Part shown: positions 856 through 41,679 of the stretch, piece after piece
Position numbering within the stretch: the stretch's first letter is position 1
Layout: every line of letters begins with the position of its first letter
Source of the DNA: a virus
Virus record (IMG/VR): IMGVR_UViG_3300045988_173913
Location: 1-41,679 of that record
Length of the DNA stretch: 41,679 nt
Direction: 5' to 3' (one strand)
Notes under the pieces: model-generated
Told to the model about the DNA's origin: nothing
Seen by the model: only the letters and a program-made list of their open reading frames with translations
Database searches by the model: none
Position numbers and translations under genes: made by a program

Positions 856-1329
856 ATGAAACAAAGTTCGCTTTCTAAAATACGGGAATGCTTGCAAGAA
901 TATTGCAAAGAGAATTGCATTAACGTAAAGTTAAAGATAAAAAAGCACGGGAAAAACACCGAATATATTGCGCTTTATTTTATTGAAGTTTTCGACGCTT
1001 GCCCAGATGTTTTACAGAAAATCCTTAACTTTGTGGCAAGTATTAAGTTGGATAGAACGCCCACAATGCATTGCCCCGATGAGGGGATTTACCTGCACCC
1101 AGAAGATTTTTATGTTGTCCAAAAATCATTCTCAAAAAAGATAAAGAAAAAGGCAACAAACTTCTTAAAAAGAAGGTTTCCAATATTAGTGTCGCCCTAT
1201 CCTGATTGGGAACTATTAGTTTTTCAATTTCTCTGTGGGAATATACAGATTGGAGACGATGAACATTTGCTTAATAAATTTTGGCAAGAAATAGAACAAA
1301 AGAAGGGAAACAGCAGAAATGGAAAATAA
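856..1329 (+). CDS. Hypothetical protein (start moved to the internal ATG at 856 to avoid overlapping the upstream ORF)
   Basis: The track ORF is 811-1329. The ATG at 856 (MKQSS...) directly follows the stop of 633-854. Confidence 0.4.
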   Translation: MKQSSLSKIRECLQEYCKENCINVKLKIKKHGKNTEYIALYFIEVFDACPDVLQKILNFVASIKLDRTPTMHCPDEGIYLHPEDFYVVQKSFSKKIKKKATNFLKRRFPILVSPYPDWELLVFQFLCGNIQIGDDEHLLNKFWQEIEQKKGNSRNGK

Positions 1330-2440
1330 AGAATTATATGCACACGCAAGCGCATTTGCGCGGGTATGGGCTTGTCCTGCCAGCTTGCGCTTAGAAGATG
1401 GATTGCCGAGCGAAGCGAGCGCGGCAAGCGAGCACGGGGAGTACTTGCACGGGATAATGGAGACGGGATTGAATCCGGACATTGTTTCCAATCTTTCCGA
1501 CGAGGAAAAGCAGGGCTTAAAATATGTATATGAAAGACTTGCGGAAATAGAGCACAATAACGGCGGAATTTTGGAAGAAAAAAGGGAGCTTGCTCTTGAA
1601 TACAAAGACAAGCAGGGCAACAAGTTGCTTTCTGGGCGAATTGACAAGGTTTACATTACGGAATACGGAATTGATATAATTGATTATAAATTCGGTTCTC
1701 TGTCGGTTGAAAGCGCAGAAAAGAATTTGCAACTTGCTTGTTATGCGTTTTTGTATGTTGCGAGCAATCCTGAACTTGCGGGCAATACACGGGTAAGGGT
1801 GCATATTATTGCGCCTTTTGCGATAGGCAAGAAATACTCTACTGCCTTCTATACAGTTGAGGAAATTCGGGATATTATCGGTACTCAGATAATTGAAGCA
1901 ATCCACATTGCAAGAAAGACGAATGCGCGTTTTGCGTCTGATATTGGCGAACATTGCCGTTATTGCCGAGCAATAGGCATTTGCCCGAAACAAAAGGAGA
2001 ATGCTGAAATTGTAGTGGCAGAAGGCGAAAATACGCTAAGGCAAGGCGACTTTGCAATAACGCAAGATAATGCGCTGGAAGTCTTTAAGCAGTTGGAAGA
2101 ATGGAATAAACGTAAGTTGCAAGCGGAAAAGTATGTTGAAAAGGTCAAAGAGAATCTTGAAAGGTACGTCAACGATAGCAAGGACGAGCGTTTTGAATGG
2201 AAGCAGGGCGCACGGGTAATACAGTACACTGCGCAAGATGTTTATAACTATTTTAAGCAACTAATTCCGCCAGACAAATTTATAGACTTTTGCAAACCGC
2301 AAGTAATGAATCTTGTTGAGTATGTTTCTGGGCTTTCAAGGCGCAGCAAGGCGAAGGAAAAGAAAGCATTGGACGAAGCCTTGTTAAGTGCGGGGGTGGA
2401 AGTGAAATACAACAAATCAAAGTTAATTTTGAAGAAATAA
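1319..2440 (+). CDS. Cas4/RecB-like PD-(D/E)XK nuclease with a 4Fe-4S cysteine cluster; C-terminal coiled-coil
   Basis: An N-terminal Cys (WACPASL) plus C-x2-C-x5-C (HCRYCRAIGICP) fits the Cas4/AddB-type iron-sulfur arrangement. IDKVYITEYGIDIIDYKFG fits a D...E.K nuclease motif, and QLACYAFLY fits a QxxxY motif. Confidence 0.6.
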   Translation: MENKELYAHASAFARVWACPASLRLEDGLPSEASAASEHGEYLHGIMETGLNPDIVSNLSDEEKQGLKYVYERLAEIEHNNGGILEEKRELALEYKDKQGNKLLSGRIDKVYITEYGIDIIDYKFGSLSVESAEKNLQLACYAFLYVASNPELAGNTRVRVHIIAPFAIGKKYSTAFYTVEEIRDIIGTQIIEAIHIARKTNARFASDIGEHCRYCRAIGICPKQKENAEIVVAEGENTLRQGDFAITQDNALEVFKQLEEWNKRKLQAEKYVEKVKENLERYVNDSKDERFEWKQGARVIQYTAQDVYNYFKQLIPPDKFIDFCKPQVMNLVEYVSGLSRRSKAKEKKALDEALLSAGVEVKYNKSKLILKK

Positions 2441-36234: not shown

Positions 36235-38121
36235 TTAAAATCCACCTCGACGGTTATACGCAACCTCCGCCGCTTGCGCTATCATATCTGCAATATCGTC
36301 ATGCTTCGCCTTCCCATCTTCTGTAAGCAATAATAACTCCTTCATTACTAATTGACTTACACGATGAGATGCGTTCTCAGGGAAAAGAATATTCCCACTC
36401 TCTATCATCGGCTTCATATCCATTACCCTCATCATCTTATCCCTACCCCTCGGCTTAAATCTCCTTACCGGTATCCCTCCAAGACGCCTTAAATCCTCTA
36501 TAAGCCTCATTCCACTCGCCGCATCTTCTATCCAAACACTCGTTATCCTCTGCCGATTCCCCACTCTACCATTCCACGTCCGATAAAATGTCATAAATTT
36601 CCTAACCAACTCCTCACTCGATATTTTCCCATACAACAAGTCTATCAAATGCAATCGGTTAGTATCCATTGTCCTTCCCCACAACCCTATCGCTGTGTTG
36701 TCGGCTGTCTCACTTGAACGAAAAGCCGTATCAGAAGCCATAAATACCTCACGATACTGCGTCCCAGGCACATAATGGTAAAACTTAAACCACTCCGCTT
36801 TAAACATATTCCCATTGTACAATACTGGCTCTTGTTGCCTCTGAGCCGCAAATACCGCTGGATTCGCAAGTTGCTCCTTCAACAGCATCTCCACTGGAAA
36901 TTGGCTCTCCCAAAAACTCCTCGGCGGATTCACTGTATCATCTAACGCAGGTACTTTTATCACTTCAAAGTCATTCCTATACTTCTCCAATACATACCCC
37001 ACCAAATCATCTACCGCAACCCTCTGCATTATTATGATTATTGGCGTCTTTGTCGGATTATTTAGTCGCTTGCTAAATACTGTCTCATACGATTCCTTTA
37101 CTATTCGCTTCTTGGTTTCCGAATTGAAAAATAATGGATTTAAGGCGTCGTCGATTACTACACAGCCTCCCCATTCGTCTCCGTGAACCCCGCAATTATG
37201 TACAAGAATTTTACTGTGAGTTATAAAAAAGTTATTAACATTCTTTACGGAAAGGCAATAACTTGGTTTATTATGAATATTAACAATGCTTTTTATGCGC
37301 CTATACCCCATTTTGAAGGGTATTCTATCATTACACGAATTAGAGCCGAGGTTAGACGAAAGAAGCTCTCCAACTTGTAGCTCATATCCCCTTTTTAAAC
37401 CTTCTGATGTGTAAAAAATATGGTCGGTAGTGGCTTCAATTACCTCTCCTCCTTCTATCTCTATTCTTAAATATTTATCTTCCTTATTATACACATAATC
37501 AACAACTTCTGATAATACCCTTTCCCCGCTTTCTTTCATTCCCCATACTTTTAATCCACTGGGTTTATCTTCGACTAATTTTCCTATCTTCTCAAATCCA
37601 TTCTCACACTCCACTAATGTATCATAATCAAAACAACCAAAACTCGTAATAGCACTCTCTATTGGCGCACTCCTAAATCCTCCCTTCGCAGCTGTCTCCC
37701 ACAACTCCTTCGCTTGCGTCGTACTACTCAACTTCACCCCAAACATCTTCTGCCATACAGGGTGTCTCATTATCGCCAATATGTCATCGCTCGTCCGATT
37801 ACATACCTGCTCCTGATAACTCGTAAATATAAAATTGCTCTTAGGATTGTGTATGAACCCCCAAGTTATGAAAAATTGCATTATTACGCTCTTCCCACTC
37901 CTCGGACTCATGCTTATTACCAAATTCTTCTTCTTGTTCGTCCCAAATACATACGACTCCAATGCCTCGCATATCTTCTTGTGAAAAGGCAAAAATGTAA
38001 AATCTGTCCCATACAACAACCGAAAAAAGAATATCAAATATAAGCTAAAATCACTCCTCAACGCCGTCGCTGTCGATTGTATGTTGGCAGGGTCTAACAA
38101 TTTCTCAAAGTCTATTTTCAT
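36235..38121 (-). CDS. terL: Terminase large subunit containing a mini-intein
   Basis: Walker A is MSPRSGKSVIM, with an ATPase N-domain and a nuclease C-domain. The intein blocks are CFDYDTLV (A), TTDHIF (B) and LVHN/C (G). Confidence 0.75.
   Translation of the reverse strand: MKIDFEKLLDPANIQSTATALRSDFSLYLIFFFRLLYGTDFTFLPFHKKICEALESYVFGTNKKKNLVISMSPRSGKSVIMQFFITWGFIHNPKSNFIFTSYQEQVCNRTSDDILAIMRHPVWQKMFGVKLSSTTQAKELWETAAKGGFRSAPIESAITSFGCFDYDTLVECENGFEKIGKLVEDKPSGLKVWGMKESGERVLSEVVDYVYNKEDKYLRIEIEGGEVIEATTDHIFYTSEGLKRGYELQVGELLSSNLGSNSCNDRIPFKMGYRRIKSIVNIHNKPSYCLSVKNVNNFFITHSKILVHNCGVHGDEWGGCVVIDDALNPLFFNSETKKRIVKESYETVFSKRLNNPTKTPIIIIMQRVAVDDLVGYVLEKYRNDFEVIKVPALDDTVNPPRSFWESQFPVEMLLKEQLANPAVFAAQRQQEPVLYNGNMFKAEWFKFYHYVPGTQYREVFMASDTAFRSSETADNTAIGLWGRTMDTNRLHLIDLLYGKISSEELVRKFMTFYRTWNGRVGNRQRITSVWIEDAASGMRLIEDLRRLGGIPVRRFKPRGRDKMMRVMDMKPMIESGNILFPENASHRVSQLVMKELLLLTEDGKAKHDDIADMIAQAAEVAYNRRGGF
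37195..37635 (-). mobile_element. Mini-intein (147 aa, residues 163-309 of TerL; no homing-endonuclease domain)
   Basis: Begins with Cys (CFDYDTLV), has the internal TxxH block (EATTDHIF), and ends ...ILVHN followed by a +1 Cys. The coding-region composition differs from the flanking extein. Confidence 0.7.
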
Positions 38122-38874: not shown

Positions 38875-39275
38875 TAGCCTCCATTACTCATTGTTATCTC
38901 TAATCTTACTATTACCCCCCCCCTCTCTCACATACGCGTACCATTGTCAAGCATTTTATCTACTCCCACATACCCCTTTTCTTATATTTTTTTCCAAAAC
39001 GCCTCCCCCTCCCTCACAACAATATCGCGTCCCCCATACCACCACACACCTCCACCACCCCCCTCTCCCTATCCCCATATCCCTTGCTACCACTACCAGC
39101 AACCCTACCTCTACTTCTTTCCCTTAACATACCCTACCTTTCGTTATATCCCTTATCTTATATCCCTTACCTTAGGTTCTATCTTATCTCTCTCTCTCTT
39201 ACATCGTACCTCAACACCCCCACCCCCTAAACCCCCCTCCCCCTCGCTTGCGTTTTTGCTATGGGGGGGGTATTT
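38875..39275. promoter_or_regulatory. Non-coding polypyrimidine (C/T on + strand) tract with C9 and G8 homopolymers
   Basis: About 400 bp with almost no G on the + strand. ccccccccc lies at about 38915 and gggggggg at about 39263. The ORFs called here by the track are proline-rich low-complexity artefacts. Confidence 0.5.
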
Positions 39276-39639
39276 TAGGGCAAAAAAGCTAAAATCCTCT
39301 AAAACGCGCAAAATTACACTTAAAATCGATTTTGTTTAAAAAGGTATATGATCATATAGGCAACACAATAAAAATCGTTTTTAGGTGGCTTTTTGTTGCA
39401 AATAGAGGCACTCACAATTTGGGGGGCAATCGTTTTTTTGGGGGAAAGCCGACAAATACACAACTTTTTGCCGATTGCAGTTTAAGGCCGCCTTTTATCG
39501 TTTGTAAGTGCTTCATTATCAATGAGTTGCGATCGGCAAATGGGACAAAATTAGACATAATGAACCTTATGCGACAAAACATAAGTTGTTGATTATCAAC
39601 TAACTATTATTTATTGGGTTTATTTTGTCATTTTTTAAG

Positions 39640-39770
39640 GATTGCTGACAGGCAATCCGCGCAATCTGTCAAAGGCCACAAACGCAAGCAACAATCGCAA
39701 GCCGTTGCAATCTGTGGAGTCGGACAATCCGCGCAAGCCCTTTGCCGCAAACGCAAGCAACGGCGAAAAA
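39640..39770. promoter_or_regulatory. Iteron-like cluster (caatccgcgcaa x2, aaacgcaagcaac x2, gcaatctgt x2)
   Basis: The short direct repeats were read directly from the sequence. Candidate origin or binding-site array. Confidence 0.4.
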
Positions 39771-39910
39771 AGAAAAAAGTCTTTCGCAGCCCTACTTTCT
39801 GCAGCTTGTGAATTTTCGGGAAATTTTTTGGGAAAGTACAAATGGATTTTTGTCGTCGAAAAAAAACGAAACGAAAAAAAAAGAAAAAGAGAAAAAAAAA
39901 AGAAAGAAAG

Positions 39911-39939
39911 AAAAAAAACGCCTTTACGCAAGTAAAGGC
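39911..39939 (-). terminator. Rho-independent terminator for leftward transcription
   Basis: Stem gccttta/taaaggc with loop cgcaag, followed on the minus strand by a U9 run. Confidence 0.45.
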
Positions 39940-40043
39940 TAAAAAAAAAGAAAGCCCTTGAAAAAAAAAAGAGAAAAGAAAAAAAATCCGCGCGCGGAAC
40001 AATTTTTGGGGGGGCGCGAAAAGTTAGATGGGTGTAACAAGCC

Positions 40044-40180
40044 GAAAGCGAGCGGCGCAAAAAAATATAATAAAATTGCTTGACAATTTTAAAAAAAGAG
40101 TCTGCGAAAAGGAAAGCGAGCGGCGCAAAAAAAATATAAAAAATTGCTTGACAATTTTAAAAAAAGAGTCTTGCGAAAAG
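40044..40180. repeat. Tandem duplication of a 68-bp unit; each copy carries a TTGACA box
   Basis: The unit gaaagcgagcggcgcaaaaaaatataa(t/a)aaaattgcttgacaattttaaaaaaagagtct(t)gcgaaaag occurs at 40044-40111 and again at 40112-40180. Confidence 0.8.
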
Positions 40181-40311
40181 CGGCTAACTTTTTTTGAGGC
40201 GGGAAGGGAAAAGCGCAAAAAAAAGATAAAAATATATAAAAAATTTAAGGGCGTTGCGCAAGTGGTTGAAAATGAAGGAAATAAAATTTTAAAAAAAATA
40301 TAAAAAAAATG

Positions 40312-40340
40312 TTGACATTGAAAAAGAAAAGTGTGATTAT
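40312..40340 (+). promoter_or_regulatory. Sigma70-like promoter TTGACA-17-TGTGATTAT (extended -10)
   Basis: TTGACA is at 40312-40317. A 17-nt spacer leads to TGn + GATTAT at 40332-40340. It points into the GC-rich segment 40345-40700. Confidence 0.45.
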
Positions 40341-40743
40341 GCGTGCATGAAAAATGAAGATTACGCTGCAAGGAGACGCCCGGGGGATAATATCGCGATA
40401 TTGTCCCGCGCCGGGGAAGTATTTTTTTGCAAAAATCTCAACGGGGTTTGCGCATTTGCGACCAAAAACAGAGCCGCGGAACAATATCGTTTTTACGCGA
40501 CGGAGGGCGGATTGTTGTTTTGCGCGGTGCAAATCTTTGTTGCAAGCAAAGAGTCCGTTAGCGTTGACACGCGTGCAGGGGGTTTTTGCTTTTTGACAAA
40601 AAGCAAAGATGACACTCTTCGTCTCCCGACACACGCGGAACTCCGAGAGGTCTTTGCTTTTGTCGGCTGGCAACGCGAATATCACTTTTATGCGCAAATA
40701 GATTCCTATTTTGCATAATCAACACATGGAAAGGTAAAAAAAA

Positions 40744-41004
40744 ATGAAGGTAAACGCAAAAAATTATGATAAGGCGCTAAAGCGTCTTTGCTTTAACGAC
40801 ATAAACGCGGCACTGCGCCTGTCTCGAAAAGTCACGGCTAATCCGGGCGCCGAATATGTCAAAGATTACGGCTATATTGCGCGCGGCGACGCGTGGATGG
40901 ACAACAACGGATTGCGCGGCCGCTATTATTACGGCAAGCGAGGGGATCTCATCGAGTTTGATCTAACGGATGCCGACCAATGTCAAATTTTAGGGTGGAT
41001 TTAA
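40744..41004 (+). CDS. Hypothetical small protein whose stop lies inside the R element, directly abutting the CRISPR array
   Basis: 86 aa. Its 26-nt 5' region, including ATGAAG, is identical to that of ORF 41227. Confidence 0.35.
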   Translation: MKVNAKNYDKALKRLCFNDINAALRLSRKVTANPGAEYVKDYGYIARGDAWMDNNGLRGRYYYGKRGDLIEFDLTDADQCQILGWI

Positions 41005-41010
41005 ACACGG

Positions 41011-41174
41011 GTTTCAATCCACGCGCCCCCCGCGGGGGGCGCGACCCGCAAATAGATTCCTATTTTGCATAATTTTATTGTTTCAATCCACGCGCCCGCG
41101 GGGGCGCGACGTTTGCGCTTTTGCGAATAAAAACAAGGGGGCGGTTTCAATCCACGCGCCCGCGGGGGCGCGAC
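41011..41174 (-). CRISPR. Orphan mini-CRISPR array with a type I-C-like repeat (3 repeats, 2 spacers; minus-strand repeat GTCGCGCCCGCGGGGGCGCGTGGATTGAAAC)
   Basis: Repeats lie at 41011-41045 (35 bp, with homopolymer-expanded C6/G6), 41080-41110 and 41144-41174 (identical, 31 bp). Spacers lie at 41046-41079 (34 nt) and 41111-41143 (33 nt). The repeat's reverse complement ends GCGTGGATTGAAAC, as in type I-C repeats. Confidence 0.8.
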
Positions 41175-41226
41175 AATATCAAATTTTAGGGTGGATTTAA
41201 ACACAAACATGGAAAGGTAAAAAAAA

Positions 41227-41574
41227 ATGAAGATCAAATTAACAAGAAATGATTTAAGGAACAATTTTGGCGTTATTGTAAGCTGCGGATGTTGCGAATT
41301 GCAATCCCTTCTAAGCATAAAAAACCGCGTCGGATATAACAAGGGCGTTTGCGGCTGGAATTTTGATATTTTCGATTTTGGCGGCGTCGGCTTAATTACG
41401 GGATACCGCACACGCGGCGCGGATATTAAACTTTCACGGGAATTTTGCACGCGCTGGAACGACCGCGCAAGCAATGCAACTTATGAGGGAAGAAAGCAAA
41501 TTCTTAATGAATTTGAAAGGGAATTGCAAAGACTTGCACGGGAATTTGTAGAAATTAAGATTAAAAGCAAATAA
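41227..41574 (+). CDS. Hypothetical Cys-rich small protein downstream of the array; it carries two GCACGGGAAT motifs
   Basis: 115 aa. Shares its 5' region with ORF 40744. Contains SCGCCELQ and CGWNFD cysteines. Confidence 0.4.
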   Translation: MKIKLTRNDLRNNFGVIVSCGCCELQSLLSIKNRVGYNKGVCGWNFDIFDFGGVGLITGYRTRGADIKLSREFCTRWNDRASNATYEGRKQILNEFERELQRLAREFVEIKIKSK

Positions 41575-41679
41575 AAGCACGGGCAAGGATTAAAGAAAAG
41601 CACGGGCAAGGATTAAAGAAAAGCACGGGCAAGGATTAAATAAAAGCACGGGCAAGGATTAAATAAAAGCACGGGCAAG
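41573..41679. repeat. Tandem 23-bp repeat, 4.6 copies in two variants (...attaaag x2, ...attaaat x2, then a partial copy), continuous with 1-60
   Basis: Direct reading: the last 15 nt equal the first 15 nt of the window. Confidence 0.9.

Follow-up and report, generated by a model that had tools for sequence, protein, structure and literature searches.

CRISPR mini-arrays with one or two spacers form an established class in viruses that lack cas genes; their usual targets are close relatives, and the leaders found in phages are unlike those of host arrays (PMC7099407, PMC6858448, PMC11656645). What is known of such virus-borne arrays comes largely from surveys, together with a single experimental system in archaea. 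Phages also carry RNA anti-CRISPRs (Racrs), defined by a single repeat-like unit; Racrs including RacrIC1, and even a non-targeting crRNA, lower interference (Camara-Wilpert et al. 2023, PMC10651486). Viral Cracr arrays, among them two-spacer type I-C arrays in phages, have spacers from host CreR/CreA which pair through their PAM-proximal part with host promoters (bioRxiv 10.1101/2024.10.29.618823). Recombination between the spacers of a CRISPR locus and the protospacers of a phage has also been described (Varble et al. 2019, as cited in PMC7099407).

Here we analyse a locus that belongs to the established class of virus-borne mini-arrays and is most likely aimed at relatives, and in which the footprint of the insertion is unusually legible. 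The window, i.e. the whole stretch of DNA that was analysed, is 41,679 nucleotides long (IMG/VR record IMGVR_UViG_3300045988_173913). This phage assembly is circular, its ends overlapping by 61 nt, and corresponds to a genome of 41,618 bp that encodes a terminase, a portal protein, DnaB and an endolysin.

Results

A type I-C mini-array with its crRNA sense on the minus strand

The array extends from 41011 to 41174 and contains three repeats and two spacers, with the minus strand as the crRNA sense. In window order these are rep1 (41011-41045), spacer 1 (41046-41079, 34 nt), rep2 (41080-41110), spacer 2 (41111-41143, 33 nt) and rep3 (41144-41174). At 35 nt, rep1 is a variant whose stem has extended runs of C and G; this odd repeat is located at the leader-distal end, as are degenerate repeats in bacterial arrays.

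Three bacterial arrays contain the exact 31-nt repeat as a variant unit, and two of them have the consensus GTCGCGCCCCCCGCGGGCGCGTGGATTGAAAC, at 32 nt one base longer than the phage repeat. Near-identical repeats are present in Marinobacter, Methylotenera and a Spirochaetia MAG. The array of Marinobacter litoralis comes after cas4-cas1-cas2, and the Cas1 encoded there scores 493 bits against TIGR03640 (type I-C Cas1c), for which the cut-off is 385. Since the phage repeat is shared with an array adjoining a type I-C cas4-cas1-cas2 module, it is a type I-C repeat; its crRNA sense is the window's minus strand. A type I-C repeat, the substrate of Cas5c and the source of the 5' handle, forms a stem-loop with an 11-nt tail whose last bases are AUUGAAAC. 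Read on the minus strand, each of the three phage repeats takes this form, folding as ..(((((((....)))))))..........., with the 11-nt tail UGGAUUGAAAC. Rfam likewise assigned the repeats to CRISPR-DR9 on the minus strand, with scores below the gathering threshold. The phage spacers measure 33-34 nt, compared to 33-36 nt in the bacterial arrays with near-identical repeats. None of the spacers in the Marinobacter and Spirochaetia arrays matched this phage, and no host was identified in that way. Cas families were absent from the scanned ORFs, a set that comprised part of the small ORFs, and from the annotations of relatives. The only Cas-like signal was a weak Cas4-like match of a DUF2800/PD-(D/E)XK recombination nuclease that is common to all relatives.

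The region between 40693 and 41232 is found without a single difference in four independent ENA assemblies and the locus is thus real, not an assembly artefact. A sequence-only reading of this region had described an array embedded in a mosaic of duplicated elements, and the identities on which that description was built are all exact. Element P (40693-40719 and 41047-41073, the latter within spacer 1) is identical over 27/27 nt, element R, which flanks the array as a direct repeat (40984-41008 and 41180-41204), over 25/25 nt, and element Q, which precedes both flanking ORFs (40724-40749 and 41207-41232), over 26/26 nt. R can be extended to 40978-41008 and 41174-41204, with 30/31 identical positions. 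P, Q and R have no further copy in the window at up to three mismatches, and shuffles yielded 0 expected matches. The "mosaic" resolves, however, into three separate things: a spacer/protospacer match, a target duplication and a module containing a ribosome-binding site (RBS).

Searching the GenBank phage collection in near and distant modes left the locus and half the genome without a match. IMG/VR scans returned nothing for the exact repeat, P, spacer 2 (with the flipped positions set to N), TerL, ORF2 or an ORF2 profile, and a scan with a shorter repeat core retrieved only an unrelated virus with a solitary I-C-like repeat. The ORF2 profile identified 47 distant loci in JGI metagenomes (31-53% identity), none of which contained the repeats, R, P or Q.

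Both spacers match the first gene of the early operon

A strong promoter-like site on the plus strand (40312-40340; TTGACA-17-GATTAT, with a TG) is kept in relatives and is predicted to drive an early operon, ORF0-ORF1-(array)-ORF2, on that strand. ORF0 (40347-40718, plus strand, 123 aa) is the first early gene and a rare accessory gene. A word-indexed protein search found only ORF0 itself; an exhaustive search recovered homologues with 54% and 34% identity, and the allele targeted by the spacers is not among them. The 54% homologue is the first gene after the early promoter in a related phage (L062-L064). More generally, the slot between this promoter and ORF1 is variable, being empty in L010 and L059, occupied by unrelated small ORFs in L060 and L061, and occupied by ORF0 here. 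No function could be assigned to ORF0, ORF1 or ORF2 from Pfam, PHROGs or PADLOC, and the AlphaFold model of ORF0 (pLDDT 59) was too poor for a fold search.

ORF0 bears the self sites of both spacers: spacer 1 matches its 3' end at 27/34 positions and spacer 2 matches it at 26/33. The two sites share a strand and are 246 nt apart, and no shuffle came near these scores. P is not, then, a duplicated mosaic element as had been proposed, but one side of a spacer/protospacer relationship, of which spacer 2 has its own in the same gene. The match of spacer 2 had been overlooked in the first reading.

The spacer 1 self site (40692-40725, minus strand, PAM position at 40726-40728) contains the P copy at 40693-40719 and covers the last 8 codons and the stop codon of ORF0, followed by the intergenic linker. 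Spacer 1 encodes PQIDSYFA* where the carrier encodes AQIDSYFA*, and identity ends one base past the stop codon. The PAM of type I-C systems is a 5'-TTC adjoining the protospacer. In crRNA orientation, spacer 1 mismatches its self site at positions 1-6 and 34, and CAT, not TTC, stands at the PAM position, in agreement with the earlier observation that the two copies diverge at the PAM-proximal seed and lack a TTC. The spacer 2 self site (40446-40478, minus strand) is adjoined by GAA at 40479-40481, which reads as a 5'-TTC PAM. The score of 26 for spacer 2 against ORF0 compares to 20 for the next best site in the genome, and 0/1000 shuffled spacers reached 26. In frame, spacer 2 encodes VCAFANKNKGA versus VCAFATKNRAA in the carrier, the changes being conservative. 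Its mismatches fall at crRNA positions 4, 5, 7, 8, 16, 17 and 25, with the seed disrupted.

In the 54% homologue of ORF0 (L062), GAA follows both equivalent sites and, at the spacer 1 site, this GAA begins the RBS GAAAGG. The source of spacer 1 most likely read ...GCATAATTTTATT running directly into GAAAGG.... The carrier reads TAAT-CAACACATG-GAAAGG instead, with a different linker that is 3 nt longer, and consequently both the seed match and the PAM register are lost at this site. Both spacers thus come from an ORF0-like gene, probably a diverged allele carried by a relative of this phage. The allele targeted by them would contain GTTTGCGCTTTTGCGAATAAAAACAAGGGGGCG followed by GAA and CCGCAAATAGATTCCTATTTTGCATAATTTTATT followed by GAA.

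Neither spacer should be able to direct cutting of the carrier: at both sites in its ORF0 the seed is disrupted, and at the spacer 1 site there is no PAM either. That the mismatches would avoid self-targeting had been proposed for spacer 1 in the sequence-only reading, and the seed mismatch and missing PAM bear this out. The same reading had raised the idea of a perfect match to spacer 1 in relatives; this was not confirmed, as searches of IMG/VR, the relatives that were fetched and the protein databases turned up no sequence that either spacer matches perfectly. Regulation of ORF0 by the phage's own crRNAs was also considered and was rejected, the pairing being PAM-distal and the seeds mismatched.

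ORF0 is hyper-variable even among near-identical strains, with 11 variable sites in 372 nt versus 2 in the next 831 nt (Fisher p = 9e-5). A cluster of variants at 40616-40622 falls on a plus-strand TTC and the two bases after it, and three contigs each have a different variant there. This pattern would fit repeated escape from a type I-C spacer, and with it ongoing I-C pressure, and we take it as only a hint.

The array was inserted behind ORF1 and duplicated its target

ORF1 (40744-41004, plus strand, 86 aa) is kept in relatives and its C-terminal coding end, ..QILGWI*, is R. The left copy, R1 (40978-41008, plus strand), includes the last codons and the stop codon of ORF1 and has TGT where both relatives and the right copy have TAT. 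The right copy, R2 (41174-41204, plus strand), is non-coding and shares its first base with the end of rep3. Thus, it is R2 that keeps the ancestral CAATATC, and the coding copy R1 that has CAATGTC.

We compared the locus to sets of homologues of ORF1 (n = 9) and ORF2 (n = 73 clusters). L010, L059, L060 and L061 all contain ORF1 with a single R, and contain no CRISPR repeats, no second R and no P. In L010 and L060, ORF1 ends in ...YQILGW[IL]* and ORF2 begins 26-35 nt later; in L059 and L061 other genes come next. Since the single R of relatives is the coding end of ORF1, the second R was made by the insertion of the array. The array is therefore a lineage-specific insertion of 165 bp just past the ORF1 stop codon, accompanied by a target duplication of 30-32 bp. 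The inserted segment (41009-41173, minus strand) consists of GG and the mini-array. Both its ends lie within 2 nt of repeat boundaries, and both neighbouring genes and their RBSs are spared. The array-free arrangement ORF1-R-ORF2, for which the sequence-only reading had suggested looking in related genomes, thus exists in L010 and L060, and no relative was found in which P, Q or R is duplicated without CRISPR repeats.

The target site itself resembles the repeat. As noted from the sequence at the outset, the reverse complement of R matches 12 of the 14 nucleotides at the repeat start. Only 3 other 14-mers in the genome score as high. The duplicated site is thereby counted among only three places in the genome that match the repeat at 12/14 or better, and 0.09% of random 31-nt sites hold such a match. 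The duplication (30-32 bp) has the length of one repeat (31-32 bp) and is offset by 2 nt from the repeat-like alignment. At the right junction, the end of rep3 shares a CGAC microhomology with the sequence to the left of R1. It had been suggested that the array arose or moved by recombination or by integration at repeat-like sequence. The insertion at a repeat-like site is upheld by the array-free relatives; the role of R as a pre-existing flanking homology is not.

We rejected a direct homologous exchange between R and a repeat of the host as the route of insertion, because R is inverted relative to the array repeats and the product would be arranged differently. Our default route of insertion is microhomology-mediated capture, for example by template switching. 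A second route would be that the host Cas1-Cas2(-Cas4) integrase put the whole repeat-spacer block into the phage DNA and left the duplication as its footprint. Nivala et al. 2018 reportedly described off-target ('neo-CRISPR') integration by Cas1-Cas2. The repeat-length duplication, the choice of one of the three most repeat-like sites and the ends of the insert near repeat boundaries speak for such an event. Of the features of off-target integration, the length of the duplication and the repeat-like site are found here and the insert size of one spacer (33-36 bp) is not. As the insert is far larger than one spacer, we regard integrase-mediated insertion as a minority reading, and an unlikely one. 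The repeat-length duplication at a repeat-like site is nevertheless the most interesting residue of the locus.

Q shows no sign of a link to the array

Copy 1 of Q (40724-40749, plus strand) comprises an RBS module and the ATGAAG start of ORF1, and copy 2 (41207-41232, plus strand) lies before ORF2, which with the same ATGAAG starts MK. ORF2 (41227-41574, plus strand, 115 aa) is a conserved early gene with 73 homologue clusters. In this phage as in its relatives, many early genes are preceded by a module of the form GAAAGG(T/A)AAAAAA-ATGAA, which makes Q a generic RBS module of the phage group. In relatives, the intergenic sequence after ORF1 is already Q-like. The identity over 26 nt therefore reflects a recent homogenisation of two neighbouring intergenic regions that were already similar. 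Codon 2 of ORF2 encodes K here versus N in 27/28 aligned homologues and D in P0043, which points to Q having been copied from the ORF1 side to the ORF2 side. Q had been counted as part of the array's origin; we found no evidence tying it to the arrival of the array.

Transcription of the array

The array is antisense to the early operon, which reads through it. In the crRNA sense, the only promoter-like site upstream of the array is a candidate at 41304-41275 on the minus strand (41275-41304 in window numbering; TTGCAA-18-TACAAT, 9/12), located inside the ORF2 coding sequence, and array-free relatives have it too. There is no host-type leader at the array. RNA folds of either strand were uninformative. 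The antisense position, together with a promoter candidate of only 9/12, is the main weakness of any functional reading of the locus.

Discussion

Together, these results lead us to favour, with a probability of roughly 0.55, the interpretation that the locus is a virus-borne mini-CRISPR array with type I-C repeats which serves as a weapon against closely related phages. The original source of both spacers, taken up next to TTC PAMs, would be a closely related phage with a diverged ORF0 allele; such a phage is the expected source because ORF0 is the variable first gene of the early operon. A 165-bp piece with three repeats and two spacers would have been inserted after the ORF1 stop in one phage lineage, duplicating about 31 bp. 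A minus-strand transcript, if made, would have its repeats cut by the host Cas5c. The two crRNAs would load into the Cascade of a presumed host type I-C system, and this Cascade would direct Cas3 against co-infecting or superinfecting relatives bearing the targeted ORF0 allele, which we assume to be still circulating.

The most serious competitor, although we consider it improbable, is a passive relic, i.e. a trailer-end fragment of a host type I-C array that was captured illegitimately through microhomology and is functionless in the phage. The host would have been immunised against the phage family, possibly by primed adaptation, and the ORF0 match would be the host's memory of a relative. 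The CGAC microhomology at the right junction, the leader-distal position of the variant repeat, as in host arrays, and the array's antisense orientation to the early operon without a leader or clear promoter speak for this reading; the derivation of two spacers from the same strand of a single 372-nt gene looks like primed type I adaptation, and no live target was found. Against this, all three repeats are intact, with complete handles and hairpins, and the insert is bounded within 2 nt of the repeat boundaries with neighbouring genes and RBSs spared. The array is also unchanged in five assemblies from different samples, an identity that carries no statistical weight as the flanking genes are almost invariant too. 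Finally, surveys find that viral mini-arrays preferentially target relatives (PMC11656645).

Could the repeats matter and the spacers not? An RNA anti-CRISPR decoy, Racr-like or acting as a non-targeting crRNA, would titrate Cas5c, Cas7 and Cas8c so that fewer are left for the host crRNAs aimed at this phage, with the identity of the spacers irrelevant. The array lies in the variable accessory slot after the early promoter, the usual place of counter-defence genes, the spacers indicate that I-C systems adapt against this phage family, and Racrs, like a non-targeting crRNA, lower interference, as mentioned above. However, the locus has three repeats and full-length spacers of 33-34 nt rather than a solitary repeat, no known Acr family was detected in its neighbours and the strongly transcribed strand is the reverse complement of the repeat, to which Cas5c should not bind. 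We thus think it doubtful that the locus acts as a decoy.

Regulatory roles appear more improbable still. As a viral Cracr array, the locus would use its spacers to guide Cascade, by partial PAM-proximal pairing, to the promoters of host cas or defence genes. Two-spacer type I-C Cracr arrays do exist in phages, and the PAM-proximal part of spacer 1 (AATAAAATTATG) is AT-rich and promoter-like. Alternatively, the plus-strand early transcript might act as an antisense 'anti-repeat' RNA that pairs with host pre-crRNA repeats and blocks their processing; the early operon must indeed transcribe three perfect anti-repeats, but we know of no precedent for anti-repeat RNAs against type I systems. Against a regulatory role, acquisition from an ORF0 allele fully explains both spacers.

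Lastly, an alternative raised earlier was that flanking homology, here R, Q and P, lets the array pass as a cassette from phage to phage by homologous exchange. Direct repeats do flank it, but this idea is left with next to no probability: relatives have one R, which is ORF1 coding sequence and whose second copy came from the insertion, Q-like modules are generic, P lies within the array as a spacer, and no other holder of the cassette was found among the 73 ORF2-homologue clusters, the 9 ORF1 homologues, the 47 distant loci and IMG/VR.

If the favoured weapon reading is right, the locus is a test case of how a phage may discriminate self from a near-identical competitor, by divergence of seed and PAM in a hyper-variable first early gene. 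The locus further points to type I-C pressure on ORF0 within the phage group. It is also a test case of how arrays enter phage genomes, by microhomology capture or by integrase-mediated insertion. Were the integrase reading true, the adaptation machinery itself would seed virus-borne arrays, an undescribed route of array birth or mobilisation.

How does the locus compare to described systems? It resembles the RNA anti-CRISPRs and solitary repeat units, including RacrIC1 (Camara-Wilpert et al. 2023, PMC10651486), as a phage mimic of a type I-C repeat among early accessory genes. Unlike the single repeat-like unit that defines these, it has three repeats and spacers of canonical length (34 and 33 nt), it has no recognised neighbouring Acr, and its orientation is opposite to that of the operon. 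With viral Cracr arrays (bioRxiv 10.1101/2024.10.29.618823) it shares the format of a two-spacer type I-C array in a phage; whereas Cracr spacers come from host CreR/CreA and pair PAM-proximally with host promoters, the spacers here would be phage-derived and their known match is PAM-distal.

Spacer-protospacer recombination between phages and CRISPR loci, as far as it is presented in PMC7099407 (citing Varble et al. 2019), likewise places array DNA with phage-matching spacers in a phage. Here, by contrast, the junctions are not at spacer/protospacer homology, and the array is 290 bp from the nearest protospacer-like site. Off-target integration by Cas1-Cas2, like the event at this locus, leaves a direct duplication of roughly one repeat length where the target resembles the repeat, but what it inserts is a single spacer of about 34 bp, as against a whole mini-array of 165 bp here.

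The closest parallel is with virus-borne mini-arrays (Faure et al. 2019; Medvedeva et al. 2019, PMC6858448; Iranzo et al. 2020, PMC7099407; PMC11656645). As in those, two spacers are found in a viral genome without detected cas genes, the repeats are of a cellular subtype, the spacers appear to come from a close relative, the carrier is predicted to escape and, as in phage mini-arrays, a host-type leader is lacking. Three points differ. Firstly, the gene to which both spacers map, in the form of a diverged allele, is still present in the carrier itself. Secondly, the array is antisense to the surrounding operon. Thirdly, relatives preserve the empty site, so that the footprint, a 30-32-bp duplication at a repeat-like site, can be read directly. 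The empty site can thus be compared directly with the filled one, with the duplicated target and with the carrier's mismatched version of the targeted gene.

Strain-level variation in ORF0

When near-identical assemblies were compared, strain-level SNPs were found to be concentrated in ORF0 (40347-40718, plus strand), the first early gene, in which the self sites of both array spacers lie: 11 of its 372 nucleotides vary, versus 2 in the following 831 (p = 9e-5). The variable positions lie at 40403/40409, 40444/40445, 40541-40552 and 40616-40622. The last of these, 7 nucleotides long, differs in three contigs, each of which carries its own distinct change, and it spans a plus-strand TTC (40618-40620) and the two bases after it. 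Such a distribution would be consistent with evasion of an unseen type I-C spacer. ORF0 also contains a palindrome, CGGGGGATAATATCGCGATATTGTCCCGCG, with a 15-nt inverted partner (40381-40410 and 40475-40489), and the motif GAACAATATC, which comes immediately after the spacer 2 site (40446-40478) and is similar to the left-edge sequence that relatives have at R, the 3' coding end of ORF1 (duplicated in this phage).

Other features of the genome

Upstream of ORF0, a 68-bp sequence occurs twice as a direct repeat, with a third copy that is partial (40044-40171 and 40291-40329). Each of the three contains a TTGACA box flanked by A/T-rich sequence, and together they look like stacked promoter-like elements in the divergent control region that separates the terminase genes from the early operon. 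The 1.1 kb or so at 38900-40000, with the small terminase gene on one side and the early promoters on the other, is without convincing ORFs; it contains short repeats and extended runs of A and of T, and may hold the packaging site or origin. Downstream of ORF2 (41569-41679, running on into 1-61), a 23-bp unit, AAA(T/G)AAAAGCACGGGCAAGGATT, is present in five tandem copies, after which comes a hairpin. These units, whose sequences differ among strains at 41595 and 41618, could be iterons or an array of protein-binding sites.

In the recombination module, the DUF2800/PD-(D/E)XK nuclease (1319-2440, plus strand) gave a weak Cas4 match in PADLOC (E = 2e-5). It is common to all relatives and is therefore not particular to the array-bearing lineage. 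The large terminase (628 aa; 36235-38121, minus strand) appears to hold an intein: there is a C...HNC block mid-sequence, homologues in the genomes L011 and L065 have Pfam Intein_splicing/Hint matches, and that of L060 is 481 aa long and lacks one.

Repeat-like sites within and outside the phage

The interior of ORF1 contains a second repeat-like stretch, GCGACGCGTGGATGGAC (40886-40902), matching the CRISPR repeat in its sense orientation at 12 or more of 14 positions. Both this stretch and R are among only three sites in the genome that do so. Because relatives read GAAGA(N)TGGA at the equivalent position, the array-bearing lineage is the more repeat-like there. A solitary type I-C-like repeat, GTCGCACCCCCGCGGGCGCGTGGATTGAAAT, is also found at 320-354 of an unrelated, GC-rich viral contig (L069; IMGVR_UViG_3300038318_000271), where it is a candidate Racr-type solitary unit.
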